A stretch of 64,000 bases of DNA from an uncultured Bacilli bacterium (GTDB lineage Bacteria; Bacillota_I; Bacilli_A; RF39; UBA660), in NCBI GenBank assembly GCA_934148845.1, contig CAKPDH010000001.1, forward strand, positions 98,939 through 162,938, given 5' to 3'. The notes beneath the pieces were generated by a model. It worked only from the letters and a program-made list of their open reading frames with translations, had not been told where the DNA came from and did no database searches. Shown piece by piece: positions 7,357 through 59,967 of this stretch. The position numbers and the translations under genes were made by a program. How positions within the stretch are numbered: the first letter of the stretch is position 1; every line of letters begins with the position of its first letter.

Positions 7357-9717
7357 ATGTATGATTTAGGTGAATATTTTAAATTTGATTTATCTTTAGC
7401 GCGTATGAATAATGAATGTATATTTAAAGGTAGTAAATATAGAATAACCATTTTAACTGAAAGATTAGTTAGAATTGAATATAATGAGGCGGGTACTTTT
7501 ATTGATAATCCAAGTATACTTGCTTGGTATAGAAATTTTACAAAGCCAAAGTTTTTAGTAGAAGAAACAGATAAAACATTAAAAATAACAACTAAATATT
7601 TTTCTTTATTTTATAAAAAAGAGATGCCTTATAAAGGAAGTAGTATAAATCCTACAAAGAATTTTAGAATAGAATTATTGAATACAGATAAAGTATGGTA
7701 TTATAACCATCCGGAAATAAGAAATTTTGGATATTATAATTATTCTGAAGAATCTTCTAAGCTTGAAAAAAATAAAGGATTATATTCTGAAGATGGATTT
7801 TGTTCTTTAGATGATTCTAAAACTCCTATCATACTTGAAAATGGTATGTTTAAAAAAAGAGAAACTGTGGGTGTTGATACATATATATTTTTATATAATA
7901 AGGATTTTTATTATTGCCTAAATGATTATTTTAAACTTACAGGATATCCTCCATTATTACCTAGATATGCTTTTGGTAATTGGTTTAGCAAAAATCAATT
8001 TTATACTGAATTTGATGTAGCTCATTTAGCACGTAAATTTGAAGAAAATCTTGTACCTATATCTATGATTACACTTACTAATTGGGAAGACGATATTAAA
8101 TATAAATTTAAAAGCATTTATAGAGAAATACCAAATATAATTAATTTTTTAAATCAAAAAAATATAAGACTTGGATTAGAAATTACTGATATTGTTGATT
8201 TTTCTGATAAAGTCGTAAATTTTGATATAATAAAGCAATATAAAGAAGTAAATAAGAAAGGAAAAATTCCATTTAATGTATTTGATGAAAGATGTATTGA
8301 TGCATATTTTAAGCTTATAATACATCCTATAGATAAGATGGGAATAAATTATTATTATTTATCTTCAACAAAAGATAATGATAGGCTTTCTATGCTTAGA
8401 CATTATTTATATAGAGATAGTATAAAGGATTTGGATAATAGACCAATTTTAATGTCTAAAGATTATTTATATGGATCTCATAGATATTCTTTATTGTATT
8501 CTGGTGATGAAAGTGTTAGCTTTGATACCTTAAAAAATATTGTTAAGATAAATACATCATCATCTAATATTGGTATAAGTTATTTTAGTCATGACTTTGG
8601 TGGATCAATTGGTGGTGTAGAGGATTCAGAATTGTTTACAAGGTTTATACAGTTAGGTACTTTTTCACCTATATTTAGACTTGGAGCTGGAGAAAGCAAA
8701 TATTATAAAAGAGAACCTTGGAAATGGGATATTTCAACAAATAAGATAACTTCTGATTATATGAGATTAAGATATAAGTTAATACCATATATATATACAG
8801 AAGCTTATAAATATTATAAGTATGGAAAACCTTTAATAGAACCTATTTATTATAGATATCCATCATTATATGATGATGTACTTTATTGTAATAATTATTT
8901 CTTTGGTTCAACATTTTATATTTGTCCTATATTATCAAAAAAAGATGAAGTAATGGATAGGGTTATTCATAAGTTATATATTCCTGATGGTATATGGTAT
9001 GATTATTTTACTGGTAAAAAGTATACAGGAAATAAAAAGTATGTATCATTTTATAAAATAGATGAATATCCTGTATTTGTAAAAAGTGGTGCGATAATAC
9101 CTTTGTCTACAAATAAATTTAATGATACTAGTATACCTAAAACTTTAGAAATTGCTGTATTTCCTGGAGATAATAATACTTATAGTATATATGAAGATGA
9201 TGGACTTACAAATAAATATCAAAAGGGTGAATATGTAATTACTAATATAGAGTTTTTATTTAAAAAAGATAATTATACATTAACAATATTACCAGTAGCG
9301 GGAAATTCTTCAATTTTACCTAGTAGTAGAAATTATAAAATAAGAATGAAAAATACTAAGCCTTCTGCCTTAGTAAAAGCTTATTCTAATGGTAATAAGA
9401 TAATGGTTAAAAGATATAAAGATTCTAATGATTTAATAGTAGAGCTTGAAAATATAAAACCTACGTCACAAATAACAATTATGTTTAGTGGTAAAGACAT
9501 TGAAATTGAGGCACTTAGAATTATAAATGATGATATTGTTGGAATAATTAGTGATTTACCACTTAAAACATCAATTAAACAAAAAATAGATAGTATTATG
9601 TTTTCACAAAATATTTCTTTAAAAAAGAAAAGAATTGAAATAAGAAAATTAAATTCCTTGGGTAGAAAATATATTAATTTATTCTTAAGATTACTTGAAT
9701 ATATTAATGAAGTGTAA
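7357..9717 (+). CDS. Glycoside hydrolase family 31-like protein (alpha-glucosidase/xylosidase fold), catalytic motifs divergent
   Basis: About 787 aa. SHDFGGSIGG resembles the GH31 WSHDIGGF motif, and YSGDESVSF resembles the acid/base W.GDN region. The nucleophile region (WIDMNE-like) is not clearly conserved. RBS AAAGGGTG before the ATG at 7357; the track start at 7348 is GTG. Confidence 0.5.
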   Translation: MYDLGEYFKFDLSLARMNNECIFKGSKYRITILTERLVRIEYNEAGTFIDNPSILAWYRNFTKPKFLVEETDKTLKITTKYFSLFYKKEMPYKGSSINPTKNFRIELLNTDKVWYYNHPEIRNFGYYNYSEESSKLEKNKGLYSEDGFCSLDDSKTPIILENGMFKKRETVGVDTYIFLYNKDFYYCLNDYFKLTGYPPLLPRYAFGNWFSKNQFYTEFDVAHLARKFEENLVPISMITLTNWEDDIKYKFKSIYREIPNIINFLNQKNIRLGLEITDIVDFSDKVVNFDIIKQYKEVNKKGKIPFNVFDERCIDAYFKLIIHPIDKMGINYYYLSSTKDNDRLSMLRHYLYRDSIKDLDNRPILMSKDYLYGSHRYSLLYSGDESVSFDTLKNIVKINTSSSNIGISYFSHDFGGSIGGVEDSELFTRFIQLGTFSPIFRLGAGESKYYKREPWKWDISTNKITSDYMRLRYKLIPYIYTEAYKYYKYGKPLIEPIYYRYPSLYDDVLYCNNYFFGSTFYICPILSKKDEVMDRVIHKLYIPDGIWYDYFTGKKYTGNKKYVSFYKIDEYPVFVKSGAIIPLSTNKFNDTSIPKTLEIAVFPGDNNTYSIYEDDGLTNKYQKGEYVITNIEFLFKKDNYTLTILPVAGNSSILPSSRNYKIRMKNTKPSALVKAYSNGNKIMVKRYKDSNDLIVELENIKPTSQITIMFSGKDIEIEALRIINDDIVGIISDLPLKTSIKQKIDSIMFSQNISLKKKRIEIRKLNSLGRKYINLFLRLLEYINEV

Positions 9718-9737
9718 TATAATACTATCAAGGTGTA

Positions 9738-9764
9738 AATTACATCTATTGATGTAATTTTTTT
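9738..9764 (+). terminator. Rho-independent terminator after the GH31-like gene
   Basis: Perfect 9-bp stem AATTACATC-tatt-GATGTAATT followed by T5. Confidence 0.7.
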
Positions 9765-9774
9765 AGGAGAAGAT

Positions 9775-10116
9775 ATGAAGAATTTATTAATATATATTAT
9801 TACATTTACTGTTTGTTATTTAATTTATTTTATATTTGTAATTAATAGAAAAAATATGCTTGAAAAATTTATTGATGGAAAAGAAATTAGATATTTAAAA
9901 TATAAATATAAAGTTAAAGTTAATAAGAATAATTTAAAAAAAATAGCTCATATGGTATCTTTAGCTAATTCATTTATTATATCTACAACAGTATTTGTTA
10001 TAGGTCTTATAGATAATCTTGTAATTGAAATATTATTAGGTTTTGCACTTATATTTATACTTATAATTTTACTATATCGTATAATTGCTATAATTATTAA
10101 GAAAGAAGGAATTTAA
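9775..10116 (+). CDS. Small membrane protein (hypothetical), translationally coupled to leuS
   Basis: 113 aa, 3 predicted TM helices, strong RBS AGGAGAAG. Stop TAA is 1 nt from the leuS ATG. Confidence 0.45.
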   Translation: MKNLLIYIITFTVCYLIYFIFVINRKNMLEKFIDGKEIRYLKYKYKVKVNKNNLKKIAHMVSLANSFIISTTVFVIGLIDNLVIEILLGFALIFILIILLYRIIAIIIKKEGI

Positions 10117-10117
10117 T

Positions 10118-12514
10118 ATGTATAATTTTGAAAAAATAGAGAAAAAATGGCAAAAATATTGGGAAGAACATGATACTTTTAAAGCATTAAATAATAGTAC
10201 TAAACCAAAATATTATTATTTAGTTGAATTTCCTTATCCATCAGGATCAGGATTACATGTAGGACATGTTAGAAGCTATACTGCACTTGATGCTATGGCT
10301 AGAAAAAAGAGAATGCAAGGATATAATGTATTATATCCAATGGGATGGGATGCATTTGGACTTCCTGCTGAGCAATATGCTATAAAAAATCATATACATC
10401 CAAGTGAGGCTGTTAAAGAAAACATAAAAGTATTTAAAAATCAAATAAAAAAATTGGGTATATCATTCGATTGGTCAAGAGAATTTTCAACAACAGATCC
10501 AGATTATTATAAGTGGACACAGTGGCAATTTTTAAAGTTTTATGAATCAGGAATGGCTTATAAAGCAAAAAAAGAAATTAATTGGTGTCCTAACTGTAAA
10601 ATAGGATTATCAAATGAAGAATCTGAAGGAAATGTATGTGAAAGATGTAATGGACCTGTTGTAAAAAAAGAAAAAGAACAATGGATGTTAAAAATGAGCG
10701 ATTACGCTGAAAAATTACTTGACGGATTAGATAAGACAGAATTTGTTGATAGAATAAAGACAGCTCAAATTAATTGGATTGGTAAGAGTGTAGGTGCAGA
10801 AGTAGATTTTAAGATAAAAGATATAGATGAAGTTTTAAAAGTATTTACAACTAGATGCGATACACTTTATGGTGTTACATTTATGGTAGTGTCACCAGAA
10901 CATCCAATACTAAAAAAATATGAAAATAAAATTAAAAATATAGATGAAGTTAAAAAATATCAATTAGAAGCACAAGCTAAAACAGAAATAGAAAGAACTG
11001 ATTTAACAAGAAAAAAGACTGGTGTTAAGATAGATGGACTTGTAGCCATTAATCCAGTTAATTCAAAAGAAATACCAATATGGATAAGTGATTATGTATT
11101 AGTTAATTATGGTACTGGTGCTATAATGGCAGTTCCAGCTCATGATGAAAGGGATTATGAGTTTGCAAAAAAATTTAATATAGATATTATTCCAGTAATA
11201 GAAGGCGGAGATAATACTTGTGCTTATACTTTAGATGGAGTTCATATTAATTCAGACATACTTAACGGACTTGGCAAAGAAGAAGCTATAGAAAAAATGC
11301 TTAAATATTTAAGTGATAATAAAATAGGTAAGAAAAAAATCAATTATAGATTACAGGATTGGGTTTTTTCAAGACAAAGATTTTGGGGAGAACCTATTCC
11401 AATGGTTCACTGCGAAAAATGTGGTTATGTACCTGTTAAAGAAGAGGATTTACCAGTAACACTTCCAGATGTCGCATCATATGAGCCTACTGATAATGGT
11501 GAAAGTCCTCTTGCAAATATTGAAGAATGGGTAAATACAACTTGTCCAAAATGTGGCGGAAGTGCAAAAAGAGAAACTGATACAATGCCAAACTGGGCTG
11601 GATCAAGCTGGTACTATTTAAGATATATGGATCCTAAAAATGATAAAGAATTTGTATCTCAAGATGCTTTAAAATATTTTAATATGGTAGATTACTATAA
11701 CGGTGGTATGGAGCACGCTACAAGGCATTTACTATATGCAAGATTTTGGCATAACTTCCTATATGATAAAGGGTTAGTTCCATATAGCGAGCCATTTAAA
11801 AAACGTGTAGCTCATGGAATGATACTAGGTGCAAATGGAGAAAAAATGAGTAAATCTAAAGGTAATGTAGTAAATCCTGATGATATGGTTAAAGAATATG
11901 GAGCAGATGCTTTAAGATGTTATGAATTATTTATAGGTGATTATACTATGGATGCTTCTTGGAATGAATTTGGTCTTAAAGGATGCAAAAAGTTCTTAGA
12001 TAGAATCTATAGACTAGGAAATAAACTAAATGATAGTTTAGAATATTCTAAAGATCTTGAAATATTAATAAATCAAAGTATAAAAAAAGTAACTGATGAT
12101 CTTGAAAATATGAAATATAATACTGCAGTATCAACACTTATGATATTACTTAATAAATTTGAAGAAAAAGATACAATAACTAAAAAAGACTATAGAACAA
12201 TTCTTCATTTACTTAATCCAATATCTCCACATATTACCGAAGAATTAAATGAAAAATATAATTTAGGTAATCCATTATGTGAATCAACTTTTCCTAATTA
12301 TGATAATAGTAAACTTGAAAATAATACATTTACTATGATAGTACAAGTAAATGGTAAAGTAAGAGGAAAAATCGAAATTAAATCAGATATAACAGAAGAA
12401 GAAATGAAAGAAAAAGCAAAAAATATAGATAATGTAAAATCATATATTGATGGAAAAGAAATAGCTAAAATAATAGTTGTACCTAAAAAATTAGTAAATA
12501 TAGTAGTTATTTAA
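10118..12514 (+). CDS. leuS: Leucine--tRNA ligase
   Basis: Class I HIGH motif (P.GSGLHVGHVRSY), KMSKS motif (GEKMSKSKGN), CP1 editing and zinc motifs (CPNC..CERC). 798 aa. Confidence 0.95.
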   Translation: MYNFEKIEKKWQKYWEEHDTFKALNNSTKPKYYYLVEFPYPSGSGLHVGHVRSYTALDAMARKKRMQGYNVLYPMGWDAFGLPAEQYAIKNHIHPSEAVKENIKVFKNQIKKLGISFDWSREFSTTDPDYYKWTQWQFLKFYESGMAYKAKKEINWCPNCKIGLSNEESEGNVCERCNGPVVKKEKEQWMLKMSDYAEKLLDGLDKTEFVDRIKTAQINWIGKSVGAEVDFKIKDIDEVLKVFTTRCDTLYGVTFMVVSPEHPILKKYENKIKNIDEVKKYQLEAQAKTEIERTDLTRKKTGVKIDGLVAINPVNSKEIPIWISDYVLVNYGTGAIMAVPAHDERDYEFAKKFNIDIIPVIEGGDNTCAYTLDGVHINSDILNGLGKEEAIEKMLKYLSDNKIGKKKINYRLQDWVFSRQRFWGEPIPMVHCEKCGYVPVKEEDLPVTLPDVASYEPTDNGESPLANIEEWVNTTCPKCGGSAKRETDTMPNWAGSSWYYLRYMDPKNDKEFVSQDALKYFNMVDYYNGGMEHATRHLLYARFWHNFLYDKGLVPYSEPFKKRVAHGMILGANGEKMSKSKGNVVNPDDMVKEYGADALRCYELFIGDYTMDASWNEFGLKGCKKFLDRIYRLGNKLNDSLEYSKDLEILINQSIKKVTDDLENMKYNTAVSTLMILLNKFEEKDTITKKDYRTILHLLNPISPHITEELNEKYNLGNPLCESTFPNYDNSKLENNTFTMIVQVNGKVRGKIEIKSDITEEEMKEKAKNIDNVKSYIDGKEIAKIIVVPKKLVNIVVI

Positions 12515-12529
12515 TTACTATATTTTTTA
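12498..12529 (+). terminator. Terminator hairpin after leuS (5' element of the repeated cassette)
   Basis: ATATAGTAGTT-attt-AATTACTATAT (11-bp stem with one G.U) followed by T-run; the same element recurs at 33628-33659. Confidence 0.55.
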
Positions 12530-12558
12530 TTGCAAATTAAAATAAATAATGATAAAAT
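12530..12558 (+). promoter_or_regulatory. Promoter of the LRR-protein gene
   Basis: TTGCAA -35, 17-nt spacer, TAAAAT -10; an equivalent promoter (TTGTAA-17-TAAAAT) is retained in the decayed copy at 33659-33687. Confidence 0.5.
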
Positions 12559-12580
12559 TAATATGAAAGTAGGAGGATAT

Positions 12581-14014
12581 ATGAAAAACAAAAAGATAAC
12601 AGTAGCTGCACTAATAGTAGCAGTATTAAGTCTTTCAATAGGATTTGCAGCATTTTCAAACAGTTTAAATATTAAAAGTAGTGCGAATGTAAAACCAAGT
12701 GATAAAGACTTTAAAATAGTATTTTCAAAAGAAAGAGATACATTTGTAAGTGGAAATGAAATAATAAATGCAACAGGAGATATTAATGAGAATACAAAAA
12801 AAGGATCAATAAATGATATAGGAGATACATTATATAATCTAGAGACAGAATTTACTACTCCTGGAGAGAGTGTAGAATATAGTTTATATATAAAAAATAT
12901 AGGAGCATATAATGCAGTATTAAATAAACTAGAAATAGAAGAAGCAGAACTAACAAGTGATATAACAGTAGATAACTATTATATAGTAGATAATGGAAGT
13001 GTTAAGTGTTATGCAAAAAAAGATCCACAAAATAAAGCAAATGAAGAATTATTAAAAGAGGCTTGTAATAATATAAAATTAAAAGTAAAACTACAACAAG
13101 AAAGTGAATATATAACAAGTACAAAAGAATTTGATAGTTATGTAATAAATAAAGGAGAAAGTGAGAGTGTTACAGTAACACTAGAATATACAGGAGATAC
13201 ATTAGCTGATACAAATTTTAATGTAGTATTTGGTAGTGTTAAGATGAATTATGCAACAGCAAAGGTAAGTAGTAGTACTCTAGTAGAAGATCAAGTATGT
13301 TTTTATACAGAATTAAATGAAGATAATAGCACATTAAGTATAGCTGGATATAATCCAGAATGTGGTACTGATGTAGTAATACCTGATAGTCTTCCACTAA
13401 CAAGTATAGAAAGCTTAGATACAGAAGCTTGTATTAATGGACTTGTAGCAACAGGAGATTATGACCAAAATTCAGCTACTCAAAGCTGCAGTTTATCAAA
13501 CGAAGATTTATTATATGAATTATCATCAAATAATTTGATGAATACTCTTAAAATTACTAAGAGTACAAATTCTTATTCTGTATCGAAGATAAAAAATAAC
13601 TCATTTGTTGAACTTAATTTAGAAAGCGTAATAATCCCTGGGACAGTAGAGATTATAGGAAGAGAGGCCTTCATTTATAATAATATATCAAGTGTTATTT
13701 TAAATGAGGGAACTAAGACAATTGATTCTTATGCTTTTGCATTAAATAAATTAAAGGAAATAAATATACCAAATAGTGTTGAAACAATAGAGAATTCTGC
13801 ATTTGATTCTAATAATATTCAAATCGTAAGTATAGGGAAGAATATAAATTTTATTGGTGAAAGTGCTTTTGGCAAAAGCAATGAAGAAGGCTATGGACCA
13901 AATAAAATAGAAAGTGTAACTATAAATACAACAAAAGATAAAGTGACAGTAGAAACAAACGTATTTAGCTGGGTATTAGGAAAAAGTGATGCAGATATAA
14001 AATGGGCTGAGTAG
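12581..14014 (+). CDS. Secreted protein with BspA/TpLRR-type leucine-rich repeats and a TasA/camelysin-like (SipW-cognate-type) leader
   Basis: Leader MKNKKITVAALIVAVLSLSIGFAAFSN resembles the TasA ..GGTWAAFND and CalY ..GTFAYFSD cleavage regions. C-terminal about 150 aa are LRR_5-like repeats (IPNSVETIENSAFDSNNIQIVSIG..FIGESAFG). RBS AGGAGG 5 nt before the ATG at 12581; the track start at 12530 is upstream. Confidence 0.6.
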   Translation: MKNKKITVAALIVAVLSLSIGFAAFSNSLNIKSSANVKPSDKDFKIVFSKERDTFVSGNEIINATGDINENTKKGSINDIGDTLYNLETEFTTPGESVEYSLYIKNIGAYNAVLNKLEIEEAELTSDITVDNYYIVDNGSVKCYAKKDPQNKANEELLKEACNNIKLKVKLQQESEYITSTKEFDSYVINKGESESVTVTLEYTGDTLADTNFNVVFGSVKMNYATAKVSSSTLVEDQVCFYTELNEDNSTLSIAGYNPECGTDVVIPDSLPLTSIESLDTEACINGLVATGDYDQNSATQSCSLSNEDLLYELSSNNLMNTLKITKSTNSYSVSKIKNNSFVELNLESVIIPGTVEIIGREAFIYNNISSVILNEGTKTIDSYAFALNKLKEINIPNSVETIENSAFDSNNIQIVSIGKNINFIGESAFGKSNEEGYGPNKIESVTINTTKDKVTVETNVFSWVLGKSDADIKWAE

Positions 14015-14131
14015 TATTTTAGATATTACTTGGGTAAATGGTTAGATAAATGATAAAAATATTTATAAATGTATTTTATAGATATTTTTTTATAAATTTA
14101 TGATATAATTTATTTAGAATGGAGATTTGAA

Positions 14132-16373: not shown

Positions 16374-16397
16374 ATAAAAAAACAACCATTAGGTTGT
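16374..16397 (-). terminator. Terminator of the HTH gene
   Basis: On the minus strand, ACAACC-taat-GGTTGT followed by T7. Confidence 0.55.
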
Positions 16398-16407
16398 ATA
16401 TAAATTA

Positions 16408-16647
16408 TTATTTATTAAAATTCATTTGATTAAATATATCAGTATCATAAAACTCTGCCATAGTTATTCCAAAAACTCTGCACATTTTATATATATTTTT
16501 GGAACTAGGATTTTCTACTTTATCATTTAGTAACGCAAAAAGAGTTGCTACTGGTACAGTGGAAAGTTCTGATAACTTGTTTGGAGTAATATGGTTTTTT
16601 TTACATAATTCTAGTATTCTATTAATAATTGCCTGTGTGAAAGACAT
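16408..16647 (-). CDS. XRE-family helix-turn-helix transcriptional regulator (79 aa)
   Basis: ILELCKKNHITPNKLSELSTVPVATLFALLNDK is a Cro/C1-type HTH. RBS AAAGGAGG. Divergent from the pseudo-receiver gene. Confidence 0.6.
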   Translation of the reverse strand: MSFTQAIINRILELCKKNHITPNKLSELSTVPVATLFALLNDKVENPSSKNIYKMCRVFGITMAEFYDTDIFNQMNFNK

Positions 16648-16706
16648 ATTATAGGCCTCCTTTGTCTAAATGTAATTATATCAAATTATTATTAAAAATA
16701 TCTCTT

Positions 16707-16792
16707 GATTTCAATAAATTTATCGAAAACAAGAACATTTTTTTAACATAAATAATTTTTTTATTGAAATCAGTAGAACTTTTATCGAAATC
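16707..16792. repeat. Array of four 12-bp motifs TTTATYGAAAWC (one inverted) in the divergent promoter region
   Basis: GATTTCAATAAA (16707-16718, inverted), TTTATCGAAAAC (16719-16730), TTTATTGAAATC (16759-16770), TTTATCGAAATC (16781-16792). The first two form a 24-bp near-palindrome. The last copy ends 2 bp before the -35 of the downstream promoter. Centre-to-centre spacing is 12/40/22 bp. Confidence 0.55.
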
Positions 16793-16794
16793 GG

Positions 16795-16822
16795 TTGACT
16801 TTTTTGATAAAAAAAGTATAAT
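16795..16822 (+). promoter_or_regulatory. Sigma-A type promoter of the pseudo-receiver gene
   Basis: TTGACT -35, 16-nt spacer, TATAAT -10. Confidence 0.55.
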
Positions 16823-16911
16823 AAATCTTGTATCAGATTTAGTTTATTTTTATTTAACAACTCATTTAATCAAAAGGTAAAACTCTTGATACATAAATGT
16901 AGGTGATAATT

Positions 16912-17478
16912 ATGAATCAAAAAGAAAAAAAATATAATGAAAACAAAATAAGTTTATTTTTCTATAATAAAACAGTTCATGAAAAAAGTAAAAGTAAAAT
17001 TAGTAATTTATCAAAATATAAACCTAACAGAAAAATATATGTTTTACTTGGTGATAATTATGAACCAATGGCAATTATTACTAATTCTATATTAGAAAGC
17101 ATAGGTTGTAAAACGACAATTGTTCCTAGTGTTAGTTCTTTAGTTCAAGAATTTAAAGAAAATAAGGATAAATATAATGTAATAATTACAAATAATATTT
17201 ATTCAAATAAAGGTACAGGAGTAGATGCTTTAAAATTAGTTAAAAAGCAGAAAAAAGATATTAAAGTTATTGTATTGGCAGTAGAAAAAAATCAAACAAA
17301 GCATTTTATTAATTTTTTAGGATTTGATGGATATTTAGAAAAACCGTTAAGTCAAAGAAAAGCTATTTCTATATTATCATCATTAATTCCAAACATAATA
17401 TTTAAAAAAATAGAACCTAAGTATTATATAAATAATAATAAAAATATAAATAAAAAATATAAAATTGATAAATATTGA
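16912..17478 (+). CDS. Pseudo-receiver (Asp-less CheY-like) domain protein
   Basis: KIYVLLGDN..MAIITNSILESIGCKTTIVPSVSSLVQEF...KYNVIITNNIYSNKGTGVDALKLVKK...IKVIVLAVEKN...FDGYLEKPLS follows the receiver-domain pattern, but the phospho-acceptor Asp is Asn (VIITNN) and the conserved T/S is Ala. N- and C-terminal Lys/Asn-rich tails. RBS AGGTGAT before the ATG at 16912. Confidence 0.45.
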   Translation: MNQKEKKYNENKISLFFYNKTVHEKSKSKISNLSKYKPNRKIYVLLGDNYEPMAIITNSILESIGCKTTIVPSVSSLVQEFKENKDKYNVIITNNIYSNKGTGVDALKLVKKQKKDIKVIVLAVEKNQTKHFINFLGFDGYLEKPLSQRKAISILSSLIPNIIFKKIEPKYYINNNKNINKKYKIDKY

Positions 17479-27313: not shown

Positions 27314-27565
27314 TAAGCTTTTGAAAGGCTTTGAATGAGAAAAGTAATAATAATTACTGATTAAAGCGAGTTAGGTATGGTGTAAGCTAACGATTAAGTT
27401 TATTATGAAAAACACTCAGGAGCTTCTAATCTGAATGAAGTAAGGTTAGACGGTTGTAATCCGTTATTAATTACTCGATTTGATAGAATCGGTAAGAGGT
27501 CAATTTTTTGACAATTTGGGTGGTACCGCGGATGATGTTCGTCCCATTGAAGACGAATTACTATT
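27314..27565 (+). promoter_or_regulatory. T-box riboswitch leader (probable Asn specifier)
   Basis: T-box sequence AATTTGGGTGGTACCGCGG at 27513-27531, then terminator stem TTCGTC..GACGAA. Stem I region contains GA/K-turn-like elements and an AAU-rich candidate specifier loop (..AGTAATAATAATTACTGA..). Confidence 0.7.
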
Positions 27566-27569
27566 ATAT

Positions 27570-27645
27570 GCTCAATTAGCTCAGTCGGTAGAGCGCACGG
27601 CTGTTAACCGTTAGGTCGTAGGTTCGAGTCCTACATTGAGCGCCA
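27570..27645 (+). tRNA. tRNA-Asn (anticodon GTT)
   Basis: 76 nt. Acceptor stem GCTCAAT/ATTGAGC, D-arm GCTCAGTCGGTAGAGC, anticodon loop CT-GTT-AA, T-arm GTAGGTTCGAGTCCTAC, encoded CCA. Confidence 0.85.
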
Positions 27646-27653
27646 TCTTATGT

Positions 27654-27729
27654 GCCTCTTTAGCTCAGTCGGTAGAGCGCACGGCTGTTAACCGTTAGGT
27701 CGTAGGTTCGAGTCCTACAAGAGGCGCCA
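27654..27729 (+). tRNA. tRNA-Asn (anticodon GTT), second copy
   Basis: Identical body to the first copy, with a different acceptor stem (GCCTCTT/AAGAGGC). Encoded CCA. Confidence 0.85.
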
Positions 27730-27742
27730 TTTTAGAATAGTA

Positions 27743-33614: not shown

Positions 33615-33627
33615 ACTATAACGTAAA

Positions 33628-33807
33628 ATATAGTAGTTATTTAATTACTATATTTTTTTTGTAAATTAGATTAACTAATGATAAAATTAATATGTAAGCT
33701 AGGAGGATATATGAAAAATAACAGTAGCTGTAAGTAGTAGCATTAGGTAATTCTGTATTTAATTGGTATCAGGAAAAAGTGATGCAGATATAAAATGGGC
33801 TGAATAA
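33628..33807 (+). pseudogene. Deletion remnant of a second copy of the LRR-protein gene (terminator hairpin + promoter + 5' 40 nt + 3' 55 nt of CDS)
   Basis: 33628-33659 repeats the leuS-terminator hairpin (ATATAGTAGTTATTTAATTACTATAT + T-run). 33659-33687 retains TTGTAA-17-TAAAAT. AGGAGGATATATGAAAAA(9-nt deletion)TAACAGTAGCTG matches 12571-12615, then jumps to ..GGAAAAAGTGATGCAGATATAAAATGGGCTGAATAA, matching the last codons of the 12581-14014 gene (..GKSDADIKWAE*). Confidence 0.55.
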
Positions 33808-33883
33808 AAATATAGAGTTTTCTATCTTTTTTTATTAAATTATTATTAAGTATGGTATAATTAGATAGTAGAAAAGAGGATTT

Positions 33884-49873: not shown

Positions 49874-51382
49874 ATGAAAAGAAAAGGATTTACATTAATA
49901 GAACTACTTGCAGTAATAGTAATACTTGCAATAATAGCTTTAATAGCAACTCCAATTATACTTGGTATAATAGAGGATACGAGAAATTCATCAAAAGATG
50001 AAAGTGTAAAATTATATTTAGACACTTTAAAGAAGAGTATAGCATCTGTGCTTGCAACTGATCCAAAATTTGATACACAATATTTAGAATGTGGTGTGAA
50101 TAGTGATAGTAGTGCAGTTTGTAATTATAAAAATATAAAAGTTGAAATTAGTGGTAATACTCCTATATCAGGTAGGATTACTATTGAAAATGGTAAAATT
50201 ATTAGTGCAATAAATTTACAATTTAAAAATGATGATAATATTTATAAATTTGAGAATAATAAATTAGTATTAATGTCTCTTGATGAATTAACTGAAAGCT
50301 GCTTTGTAAGTTTAACTCAAGGTGAAATAAGCGTATATGATACATTTTGTCCCAAAAATATAAAGTTGAGTAAAAATTTGGGATTACCGGTTAGTACAGT
50401 AAAACAAAGTTCGTTTAATAAATCAAAGTGTATGGCATATGCAAAATCTTCTTCTGATGTTAATGATATTATGACAGAAGAAGAATTGTGTGCTGCTATT
50501 GCTAGTAATTATGAAAATTTTGATACCGCAATAAAAATTAAAGTTGGAGATGTAACATTTGAAAGAACTAAAGACAAGTATAAAATATCAAAAATAGGAA
50601 ATTCTGCTTTTGTAGGTAATGGAATAACAAATATAGAACTATCAGATAATATAGTTGAAATAGGTGCAAATGCATTTTCAGGAAATAGTTTAACAAGTAT
50701 CAAAATTCCAAATAGCATAACAAGTATAGGAGATAATGCATTTTCAAATAATAAACTTACAAACATAATAATTCCAAATAGTATAACAAATATAGGTGAA
50801 TCTGTTTTTGAAGAAAATGAGTTAATAAGTGTCGAAATTCCAAATAGTGTAACAAGTATAGGTGATTATGCATTTAGCGATAATAAACTTACAAATGTAA
50901 GTATTCCAGATAGTGTAACAAATATAGGTAGGGAAGCATTTTCAAATAATAAGCTTAAAAGTGTAACTGTTCCAAAGAATTTAACAACAATGGGATATTA
51001 TATATTTTCTAACAATAAAATATCAACTGTGAAAATATCTGATGGTGTTAAGGAAATTAGCTTCGGAATGTTTTATAAAAATGAACTTACAAGTGTAAGT
51101 ATTCCAAATAGCGTAACTAGAATAGAGACTGATGCATTTAATTATAATAATATAACTAATGTAGAAATTGGATCAGGAATTGAATATTTAGGAACACGTT
51201 GTTTTTATAATGATAAAGAAGTTGATGAGAATAATAATATAACGTATGGCCCAAATGAAATTAAAGTATTTAAAATACATAAGACAAAAGATGAAAGCAT
51301 ATTTAAAAATGGTAACTATAATAAAACTGTTTTCATAGGTAGCGATGGTAAGAGTAATTCAAATATAATTTGGGATAGTTAA
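49874..51382 (+). CDS. Type IV pilin-like (class III signal peptide) protein with C-terminal BspA/TpLRR-type leucine-rich repeats
   Basis: N-terminus MKRKG|FTLIELLAVIVILAIIALIATPIILG: basic leader, Gly-Phe cleavage site, Glu+5 and hydrophobic helix of prepilins. C-terminal about 250 aa consist of about 9 tandem LRR_5-like units (IPNSITSIGDNAFSNNKLTNI...). Paralogous C-terminal domain to the 12581 gene. Confidence 0.65.
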   Translation: MKRKGFTLIELLAVIVILAIIALIATPIILGIIEDTRNSSKDESVKLYLDTLKKSIASVLATDPKFDTQYLECGVNSDSSAVCNYKNIKVEISGNTPISGRITIENGKIISAINLQFKNDDNIYKFENNKLVLMSLDELTESCFVSLTQGEISVYDTFCPKNIKLSKNLGLPVSTVKQSSFNKSKCMAYAKSSSDVNDIMTEEELCAAIASNYENFDTAIKIKVGDVTFERTKDKYKISKIGNSAFVGNGITNIELSDNIVEIGANAFSGNSLTSIKIPNSITSIGDNAFSNNKLTNIIIPNSITNIGESVFEENELISVEIPNSVTSIGDYAFSDNKLTNVSIPDSVTNIGREAFSNNKLKSVTVPKNLTTMGYYIFSNNKISTVKISDGVKEISFGMFYKNELTSVSIPNSVTRIETDAFNYNNITNVEIGSGIEYLGTRCFYNDKEVDENNNITYGPNEIKVFKIHKTKDESIFKNGNYNKTVFIGSDGKSNSNIIWDS

Positions 51383-58554: not shown

Positions 58555-59967
58555 ATGGAAGAATTAAAAAATTATTTTGAAACATTAAATATAGAATATA
58601 CTGAAGATGGAAATAGATTAATTGAAACACTTATTGAAACACTATCTAATCCTAATATAGATGAAGATATAATAAAAATAATCCTTGTTGCTGCTCTTAA
58701 TAAAAAAATAATTTCGTCAGAACAATTTACAAAATACTTTGAAGAAGCAGCACGAATAAAAGATCAGCAGCTAGCACGGGAAGCTCAAGCAAATGCAGCA
58801 GATGCAACTCCAGCACAGGAAGCTCAAGCGAATGCAGCAGATGCAACTCCAGCACAGGAAGCTCAAGCAGATGCAGCAGATGCAACACCAGCACAGGAAG
58901 CTCAAGCAGATACAGCAGATGCAACACCAGCACAGGAAGCTCAAGCAGATGCAACCCCAGCACAAGAAGCTCAAGCGAATGCAGCAGAGGCAACTCCAGC
59001 ACAAGAAGCTCAAGCAGATGCAGCAGATGCAACTCCAGCACAGGAGGCTCAAGCAGATGCAGCAGATGCAACCCCAGCACAGGAAGCTCAAGCAGATGAA
59101 AAAAGAGATAAAACAAACAAGTCTGTTTGTAGAAACAAAACGTTTGGGAGTACGCTTTTAAAATCTCTTCCAGGTGCTGTTATTGTAGGTGGAATTTTAC
59201 TTGGTACTATATCAGTAGCTCCTATAACTATACCATATGCCTATGCTTTGGGTAAGCTAACTATAATTGGTGGAACTCTAGCAGGTGGTATTGTATCTTA
59301 TCTAGTATGTAAACGTTTATCAAATACAAAATTATATAAGAATATTTATAAAGGCAAAATTAGTAAAATTACTACTGATGAGTCAAAAGAAATAGAATTA
59401 GAAGCAGAAAAAACTATGACTGAAATAAGAAAAATGTTAGTAGACCCTTCAAAGGATAACTATAGGCTTCAAATTAGTTTAATTAAATATAAAAATCAAT
59501 GTGAATTACTTGAAAAAAGAATAGATATGAAAAAGAATCAAAAAGTAGCAAAAGGGGATAAAATATTACAATCCTTAAGTATACTTGCTTTAGATAGCAT
59601 AAGAAAAAATATGCAAAAAAACTTAGATGAAGCAAATTTATTACTTGCAAAAGCTGAAGAAAAAAGAGAAGGCCCATCTCGTCTTAATAAATTAAATACT
59701 AAGCTACAAGAAGTTAATGAAAACATTAGCAACATAAGACAAGCAAGCATTTCAGATAATACGGGACACTTGTCTAGTGAGGAAAAAAGCAAAAATGTAA
59801 GTAGCTATTTAAAACTTAGTATTAAATCTTCTGGATTAGAATTTATTAGAAATGCAAAAATTAGAAATATTAGGCTAACACAAAGTGTATATAATTTTTT
59901 TAATATTAAAATTAGAAGAGAATTTAAAGCTTTAGCTTCAAAATTTGATAATGCAAGACATAGATAA
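58555..59967 (+). CDS. Tandem-repeat (PAQEAQA[DN]AADAT)n membrane protein with C-terminal coiled coil (hypothetical)
   Basis: No signal peptide. About 70-aa N-terminal domain, about 10 x 11-aa Ala/Gln/Asp-rich repeats, two TM helices (GAVIVGGILLGTISVAPITIPYAYALGKLTIIGGTLAGGIVSYLV), then about 230 aa K/E-rich coiled coil. RBS GTGAGTGAGG. Confidence 0.5.
   Translation: MEELKNYFETLNIEYTEDGNRLIETLIETLSNPNIDEDIIKIILVAALNKKIISSEQFTKYFEEAARIKDQQLAREAQANAADATPAQEAQANAADATPAQEAQADAADATPAQEAQADTADATPAQEAQADATPAQEAQANAAEATPAQEAQADAADATPAQEAQADAADATPAQEAQADEKRDKTNKSVCRNKTFGSTLLKSLPGAVIVGGILLGTISVAPITIPYAYALGKLTIIGGTLAGGIVSYLVCKRLSNTKLYKNIYKGKISKITTDESKEIELEAEKTMTEIRKMLVDPSKDNYRLQISLIKYKNQCELLEKRIDMKKNQKVAKGDKILQSLSILALDSIRKNMQKNLDEANLLLAKAEEKREGPSRLNKLNTKLQEVNENISNIRQASISDNTGHLSSEEKSKNVSSYLKLSIKSSGLEFIRNAKIRNIRLTQSVYNFFNIKIRREFKALASKFDNARHR
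58775..59097 (+). repeat. 33-bp tandem repeat array (about 9.8 units, one unit shortened to 24 bp) inside the coding sequence
   Basis: Unit GCACAGGAAGCTCAAGC(A/G)(A/G)ATGCAGCAGATGCAAC(T/A/C)CCA with a few substitutions. Local GC is far above the window average. Confidence 0.9.

Follow-up and report, generated by a model that had tools for sequence, protein, structure and literature searches.

A DUF5305 protein and a dedicated signal peptidase I (SPase I) have been tied to TasA-like donor-strand fibres (PMC11821415; bioRxiv 10.64898/2026.01.04.697558). Loci for the haloarchaeal Tat-fimbriae (Tafi) encode such a pair, the signal peptidase TafD and the DUF5305 protein TafG, and deletion of TafD blocks the processing of TafA (PMC11821415). 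AbpX-type loci, which occur in archaea, Bacillota and Chloroflexota, comprise a major subunit, minor/tip subunits, an SPase I of ten membrane helices, where two transmembrane (TM) helices are the norm for prokaryotic SPase I, and a DUF5305 accessory; for the TasA locus, the only accessories given are SipW and TapA (bioRxiv 10.64898/2026.01.04.697558). In TasA, residues 28-38 serve as the donor strand; they are the 11 residues with which the protein begins once SipW has cut it (PMC9674648). Here, we compare with these systems a gene at 12581-14014 on the forward strand of a 64-kb stretch of DNA from an uncultured Bacilli bacterium (contig CAKPDH010000001.1; the whole stretch is called the window). 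The gene encodes a 477-aa (amino acid) protein with a C-terminal leucine-rich repeat (LRR) array, and residues 1-226 define a large family in uncultured gut Bacilli that is without a Pfam or NCBIfam model. We propose, with about even confidence, to see in the product an LRR-bearing orphan among the subunits of a fibre system that resembles TasA, depends on a peptidase and DUF5305, and is specific to gut Bacilli; such a subunit would be cleaved at A23|A24, would assemble by its donor strand, and would be served by a cognate peptidase encoded in this genome.

Set in register, the leaders read ..GTWA|AFNDIKSK in TasA, ..LTYA|QWSETLSLSATIS in AbpX and ..GFA|AFSxTLTIxSSAxV in the family. The likeness to AbpX of Pyrodictium abyssi extends to the gene layout (subunit, signal peptidase I with many TM segments, DUF5305 protein and minor/tip paralogs), to subunits that are acidic and contain two Cys, to a PG....F.L.N.G motif and to an aromatic residue in second place of the mature protein, which TasA has as well. 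The two differ at mature position 4, which is acidic and calcium-binding in AbpX and is not acidic in the family: of the donor-strand signature of the AbpX clade, the aromatic residue at position 2 is found (at least 76 of the 80 members have F, Y or M there), whereas the acidic residue at position 4 is not (mostly N, S or R). They differ also in subunit size (161 aa versus about 190 aa here), in host lineage (uncultured gut Bacilli here), and in that the window member bears LRR cargo and lies outside any operon; sequence homology between the two is marginal. With the TasA/TapA/SipW system of Bacillus subtilis (tapA-sipW-tasA) and CalY of B. cereus, the family shares a dedicated SipW-type peptidase beside the subunit genes, an aromatic-A|A-F-[NS] cleavage context, a larger accessory paralog in the operon and, putatively, a donor strand made of the first mature residues (PMC9674648). 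The family differs in lacking matches to TIGR04088 or Peptidase_M73, and in a linked peptidase that has about 8-9 hydrophobic segments and is accompanied by DUF5305. Tafi (TafA/C/E) offers a signal peptidase and DUF5305 pair, several paralogous subunits including tip/adhesin-like ones, and peptidase-dependent processing, but is archaeal and uses twin-arginine translocation leaders, whereas the family leader is Sec-type and lacks the twin arginine. Finally, the BspA-type LRR_5 proteins (Tannerella BspA, Treponema LrrA, and HupY/LrrG of group B Streptococcus) resemble the window protein in their C-terminal LRR_5 array; the N-terminal half is unrelated, and no known cell-wall or outer-membrane anchoring module is present here.

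Architecture of the protein and its N-terminal family

The most likely start codon is the ATG at 12581, because an AGGAGG ribosome-binding site (RBS) lies 5 nucleotides (nt) upstream of it and the close homologs all begin MKNKK. The features of the gene are given below, with structural assignments drawing on AlphaFold2 (AF2) models and their predicted local distance difference test (pLDDT) scores.

12530-14014, + strand: open reading frame (ORF) of the program-made list
12571-12576, + strand: RBS AGGAGG, invariant across three aligned copies
12581-14014, + strand: coding sequence, 477 aa plus stop; homologs P0001-P0006 share the same Met
12581-12649, + strand: signal peptide, aa 1-23; n-region MKNKK, h-region ITVAALIVAVLSLSI, c-region GFA
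12650-12691, + strand: putative N-terminal donor strand, aa 24-37, AFSNSLNIKSSANV, suggested by conservation and low pLDDT
12698-13258, + strand: beta-sandwich core of an unnamed N-terminal domain (N-domain), aa 40-226, from alignments and AF2 (pLDDT 81)
13259-13288, + strand: linker, aa 227-236, pLDDT <50; cargo modules differ between paralogs from here
13298-14011, + strand: Cys-containing cap, LRR_5 array and tail, aa 240-477, from Pfam and AF2

The N-terminus of the product, MKNKKITVAALIVAVLSLSIGFAAFSNSLNIKSS, reads as it was first described, and its leader ends in ..SIGFA|AFSNSLNIK.., with cleavage predicted at A23|A24 by analogy with TasA A27|A28 (PMC9674648). One hydrophobic segment is present in the protein (aa 6-24), and there is no C-terminal anchor. 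The C-terminal part is a BspA-type LRR array, in agreement with the first-pass annotation: LRR_5 (PF13306), the sole Pfam domain of the protein, matches aa 314-433 (nt 13520-13879; E 6.3e-21, 75 bits against a gathering cut-off of 27.7), about 5-6 repeats of 22 residues can be counted by eye, and the conserved C-terminal tail reads ..GKSDADIKWAE. Among NCBIfam models, there was partial LRR similarity to NF047961 HupY/LrrG, far below threshold (47 against a cut-off of 1250). As part of the proposal above, and at the same even level of confidence, we regard the product as a secreted modular surface adhesin of four parts: a Sec-type leader, a conserved strand of 14 residues, a beta-sandwich of ~190 aa and a BspA-type LRR domain.

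For aa 1-239, AF2 gives a mean pLDDT of 81 (88-95 in the core), and the full-length model (pLDDT 81.6) resolves two confident domains, aa 40-226 and aa 240-477, on either side of the low-scoring linker, with the LRR part reaching about 90 and forming strands every 22 residues. Both models give pLDDT below 50, as against 80-95 for the core, to the region of the cleavage site and the putative donor strand (aa 14-38 in one, 20-36 in the other), which is not packed against the protein's own domain. Foldseek returned nothing with a template modelling score above 0.35 (query-normalised), with FimG-type pilins among the generic matches; the AbpX structures 9sj2 and 9rhp exist and were absent among the matches listed. 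Searching PDB sequences with a profile made from the alignment of the family gave no matches.

Relatives recovered by a word-indexed search fall into LRR proteins that are near-identical (P0001-5), proteins with several domains (P0006-9) and a large number of stand-alone proteins of ~215 aa. A full hidden Markov model (HMM) scan over 1.84 billion representative sequences yielded 707 clusters at E<=1e-30, the 150 best listed of which all align from residue 1; at E<=1e-3 the count was 21,015, which may include LRR-only matches since the query profile carried LRR columns. No Pfam or NCBIfam model matched the N-domain, none of the 15 family cluster members examined had a source-given name, and the C-terminal cargo domains of the other multi-domain relatives are mostly without a Pfam match.

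Across the family alignments (A1-A3, 13-80 members), positions G21, L29, L114, C162 and Y203 are invariant, and F22, A23, I31, A35, V37, F44, F48, P94, G95, N106, C143 and D210 nearly so. The N-domain core carries the conserved Cys pair C143 and C162 together with the motif FTxPGxSVxYxxxxxNxGxYxAxL; the two conserved Cys and an acidic composition are signs of an extracytoplasmic location. The most conserved 15-residue segments of the alignment start at positions 9-21, corresponding to the hydrophobic leader and ~14 residues past the likely cleavage site. Of 166 family ORFs, 142 carry the leader motif G[FY][AS]x[F]x within the first 70 residues, compared with 2 of 1062 other ORFs of the same loci.

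A peptidase and DUF5305 operon in relatives

Gene context was compared over 82 loci, 80 from a scan of GTDB species representatives and two from another search, with ORFs clustered by all-against-all BLAST. The 80 GTDB loci stem nearly all from metagenome-assembled genomes (MAGs) assigned to uncultured gut 'Bacilli', 'Mycoplasma sp. CAG:877', 'Mollicutes/Tenericutes' and Candidatus Faecisoma. At 64 of the 82 loci, all from other genomes, a family gene for a protein of ~217 aa is followed, at a median gap of 49 bp, by one for a 376-aa protein. A DUF5305 protein of ~372 aa with two membrane spans comes next at 61 loci, and then usually a family paralog of 500-1300 aa carrying the leader variant G[FY]SAF[QS]. 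The 376-aa protein ends in an archaeal/SipW-type signal peptidase I (TIGR02228, 94 bits against a cut-off of 51.85; NF046067 SipW second-best at 63 bits; Pfam S24/S26), has about 8-9 hydrophobic segments, and keeps the SGSMxP, HR and TKGDAN motifs. Independent gene calls on other contigs give the order 217 / Peptidase_S24 / DUF5305 / 714 aa, with partial order in further contigs. A dedicated SPase I, with DUF5305 at most loci, stands beside the subunit genes of the family, and none was found in the window beside the LRR gene.

These loci bear on the claim of the first-pass annotation that the leader is not a standard one. They support it: no segment is better conserved in this large family than the leader, family genes adjoin a SipW-type peptidase at those 64 loci, and the idea of a leader class with a SipW-type peptidase of its own is right in spirit. 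Since G-F-A|A also obeys the -3/-1 rule, a high standard SPase I score would not discriminate. The suggested link to the SipW-cognate model TIGR04088 did not materialise: neither the full protein, aa 1-60 (E<=10), aa 1-250 nor any of the 80 family members gave a match, whereas a TasA control scored 38 bits against a cut-off of 19.

Family copies away from an operon are normal, and the window gene is such an orphan. One MAG (Lapin-030__bin25) holds one operon locus and 16 orphan genes at three other loci, and another (RGIG8711) holds one operon and three orphan multi-domain members of 406-592 aa. The contexts of P0001, P0004, P0005 and P0008 revealed orphan copies only. Near-identical paralogs lie on contigs of ~24% GC that carry the sporulation genes GerQ, YabG, SpoIIIAH, SpoIIID and GerE. 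P0004 and P0008 occur in one Hadza gut assembly, ERZ4559998, each on a contig of its own; the coverages of 158x and 166x make it probable that a single genome holds at least two orphan copies.

At two loci (L001, 3557-11515; L024, 3445-11403), gyrA and a mazEF pair are followed by ten family paralogs of ~215-230 aa in tandem, every one with an intergenic spacer of its own; no peptidase is present on the stretches examined, and the arrays resemble a variable surface-protein array. In the linked peptidase itself (L007, 1038-2168, aa 80-101, and 61 homologs), a partly conserved G....FA...NY stretch follows the third hydrophobic segment, for example GILIGFAKNTNYFTINSF. Scored with a position-specific scoring matrix (PSSM) of the substrates' cleavage/donor-strand region, two peptidase homologs take first and third place among the 1062 non-family ORFs, which may reflect chance or a substrate-like element.

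Alternatives to the proposed fibre subunit

Several results weigh against assigning the protein to a fibre. No peptidase or DUF5305 gene was detected in the 64-kb window with HMMs for the family-linked peptidase and DUF5305 applied to a six-frame translation (best E 0.03), which bears out the earlier statement that no sipW-like peptidase is encoded there. A search for the identical protein sequence found no record, no peptidase tied to this organism occurs among the 120 listed of 1233 homologs, and the word-indexed search returned no ~217-aa 'major subunit' close to this species. Comparison of alignment A3 with AbpX by hhalign gave a collinear, full-length alignment of 155 columns that is weak (P 0.007, probability 5%), and comparison of the mature parts scored 16.5 against 11.8 +/- 2.1 for shuffles, 9 of 300 of which reach that score. 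The PSSM picks the right stretch of AbpX, at only the 6th percentile of unrelated proteins, and leaves TasA-family sequences at background. Homology to TasA is undetectable, with hhalign probabilities of 1.1% against TasA and 2.6% against a 40-sequence TasA/CalY profile, the latter from A3 over 33 non-collinear columns. Finally, the A23|A24 site satisfies ordinary SPase I rules as well.

Part of this evidence would suit an ordinary secreted or loosely cell-associated LRR adhesin, whose leader is cut by a dedicated or a general peptidase and whose N-domain is a stalk or spacer, with no fibre. The fit of G-F-A|A to the -3/-1 rule, the undetectable homology to TasA, the generic fold matches and the position of the gene as an orphan far from any operon all speak for it. 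However, this explanation leaves unaccounted for the conservation of 14 residues past the cleavage site, the dedicated peptidase and DUF5305 pair beside family genes, and the retention on the cell of a protein without an anchor. We consider it rather unlikely.

Alternatively, the leader could be an uncleaved signal-anchor that fixes the adhesin in the membrane by its N-terminus, with GFAAFS..L.I serving as a juxtamembrane interaction site. The single hydrophobic segment at aa 6-24, in a protein with no other anchor, is consistent with this, and the relatives include wall-reduced, Mollicutes-like gut Bacilli. Membrane anchoring is common in wall-reduced, Mollicutes-like Bacilli. The tight operon link to a signal peptidase nevertheless argues for cleavage, as do the small residues at -1 and -3 and the finding that the linked peptidase of Tafi does process its subunit (PMC11821415), and the anchor explanation is in our judgement more doubtful still.

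True membership of the TasA/camelysin family (Peptidase_M73, NF046066, TIGR04088) is highly improbable: the local motif aromatic-A-A-F-[SN]-[ND] and a PGxxxxxxFxxxNxG motif are shared, but none of the 80 members matches TIGR04088 or Peptidase_M73 (PF12389), the protein itself has no match to the latter either, and the profile comparison and PSSM results given above point the same way. The description of the protein as TasA/camelysin-like can be kept as an analogy of leader and gene context, and not as a statement of family membership.

Returning to an orphan, LRR-bearing fibre subunit, its path might run as follows. Transcription would begin behind the leuS terminator, at a promoter belonging to the gene itself, a step suggested by conservation of the upstream block described below. 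Sec would then export the product, and a dedicated signal peptidase I of the SipW/archaeal type, acting with a DUF5305 partner and encoded elsewhere in the genome, would cut it at GFA|AFS, as the operon of the relatives implies. Once free, the strand AFSNSLNIKSSANV could complement the beta-sandwich of the next subunit as a donor strand, in the manner of TasA, AbpX and Tafi fibres, and place the LRR adhesin on, or at the end of, a fibre composed mainly of ~217-aa subunits. There, judging from its domain class, the LRR domain may bind a host or microbial ligand.

Upstream cassette, decayed copy and cargo on a pilin handle

Directly before the LRR gene lies leuS (10118-12514, stop codon at 12512-14). 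The elements in and around the intergenic region, and two further loci of the window, are as follows.

12496-12528, + strand: A/U-rich hairpin (stem 12496-12525) with a 13-bp stem and 4-nt loop, followed by a T-run; overlaps the leuS stop codon and forms the 5' edge of the duplicated unit
12530-12558, + strand: promoter-like site TTGCAA-17-TAAAAT with TG extension, 9 of 12 matches, present at three paralogous loci
33620-33806, + strand: decayed paralog; hairpin, promoter, RBS and ATG kept
49874-51382, + strand: second LRR_5 protein; N_methyl (PF07963) at aa 2-25, LRR_5 with E 8e-58

The first-pass annotation credited the gene with its own terminator-promoter cassette. The cassette and its remnant copy are real; the terminator half of the claim has to be revised. 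The hairpin (12496-12525) folds with a free energy of -10.4 kcal/mol (z -3.3; equalled by 1 of 200 shuffles) and, because it overlaps the leuS stop codon, is likely the terminator of leuS, not private to the LRR gene; no convincing terminator-like structure was found 3' of the LRR gene by sequence and fold scan. In the promoter-like site, TTGCAA (12530-35) and TAAAAT (12553-58) are separated by 17 nt, with TG at 12550-51. Such matches occur at chance level in DNA of 25% GC (18 found versus 16.3 expected), and the hexamers by themselves were rejected as evidence on that ground. The site is supported instead by block conservation, with hairpin edge, promoter and RBS common to three loci: the window gene, the 33.6-kb remnant and L083, an unrelated locus where paralog P0001 sits after two glycosyltransferase genes. 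The hairpin sequence recurs at 33625-33660, and its outer stem bases are kept in L083. An exact search for the promoter pattern in metagenomes of the Joint Genome Institute (JGI) gave no matches. At L083, a second family gene with the same RBS and leader lies directly behind P0001 (11582-11812) and is cut by the contig end; two cassette genes thus follow one another in at least one of the relatives.

The copying of the hairpin and TTGCAA-17-TAAAAT unit at 33.6 kb, noted at first reading, is borne out by two stretches of identity to the LRR gene: 87% between 12524-12569 and 33653-33698, and 85% between 13972-14030 and 33765-33823. This decayed paralog, placed between a sodium:dicarboxylate symporter gene and tex, has an 8-nt deletion leading to an early stop (MKNNSSCK*) and an internal deletion of ~1.3 kb that leaves the last ~55 nt of the gene. 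Its 3' end is closer to the P0001 type than to the intact window gene, which suggests mosaic exchange among paralogs.

Turning to the cargo, the second LRR_5 protein of the window (49874-51382) has a type IV prepilin-type N-terminus, MKRKGFTLIELLAV.., and an LRR part 36% identical to that of the 12581-14014 product. P0024 and P0025 have the same architecture, a prepilin N-terminus followed by LRR, and match the C-terminal module of P0001 with 59% identity over 249 residues, 60 of them consecutive and identical; the homology between P0001 and P0024 begins at about aa 228-236, that is, at the linker. These adhesin-bearing type IV pilins share with the 12581-14014 product its species group, the LRR cargo, the C-terminal tail and an N-terminal assembly module as sole attachment, whereas they carry a prepilin methylation motif and helix in place of a cleavable Sec leader and beta-sandwich. 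Neither protein type has a C-terminal anchor, which would fit both N-terminal modules mounting the LRR cargo on a filament. A type IV pilin interpretation of the 12581-14014 leader was rejected, as its hydrophobic segment precedes GF and N_methyl gave no match. In one Hadza MAG (L013), type IV pilin-like genes at 9074-9958 and 16382-17371 adjoin a 399-aa family member, a further instance of the two systems as neighbours.

Elsewhere in the window, a coding repeat at 58704-59153 (+ strand), inside the ORF 58555-59967, shows 15- and 39-nt periodicity and consists of 15 overlapping copies of a 147-nt unit with 61-90% identity. At 27564-27731 (+ strand), two adjacent 84-nt copies, 88% identical, look like putative tandem tRNA genes.

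More tentatively, and with less than even confidence, we suggest that the N-domain may mark a very large unnamed fibre system of small-genome gut Bacilli, RF39-like as well as their spore-forming relatives. In such a system, donor-strand exchange would follow cleavage by a polytopic SipW-type peptidase and DUF5305, arrays of up to ten paralogs would supply variation, and adhesin cargo, LRR_5 for example, would be swapped by recombination with type IV pilin handles, each gene travelling as a promoter-plus-leader cassette. No paper on surface structures of the gut Bacilli that carry the family was found in the literature searched. For annotation, a large family has been overlooked by current Pfam and NCBIfam models, and TIGR04088 would miss a whole class of SipW-type substrates. 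The swap of LRR cargo between a putative fibre handle and a pilin handle suggests a route of adhesin diversification, and a design rule for cargo display on fibres. If the proposal is correct, the TasA-type fibre principle of a dedicated SPase I with DUF5305 would extend to a large unmodelled family, and abundant uncultured gut Bacilli would possess a fibre and adhesin system with a clear processing enzyme and a testable cleavage site and donor strand.

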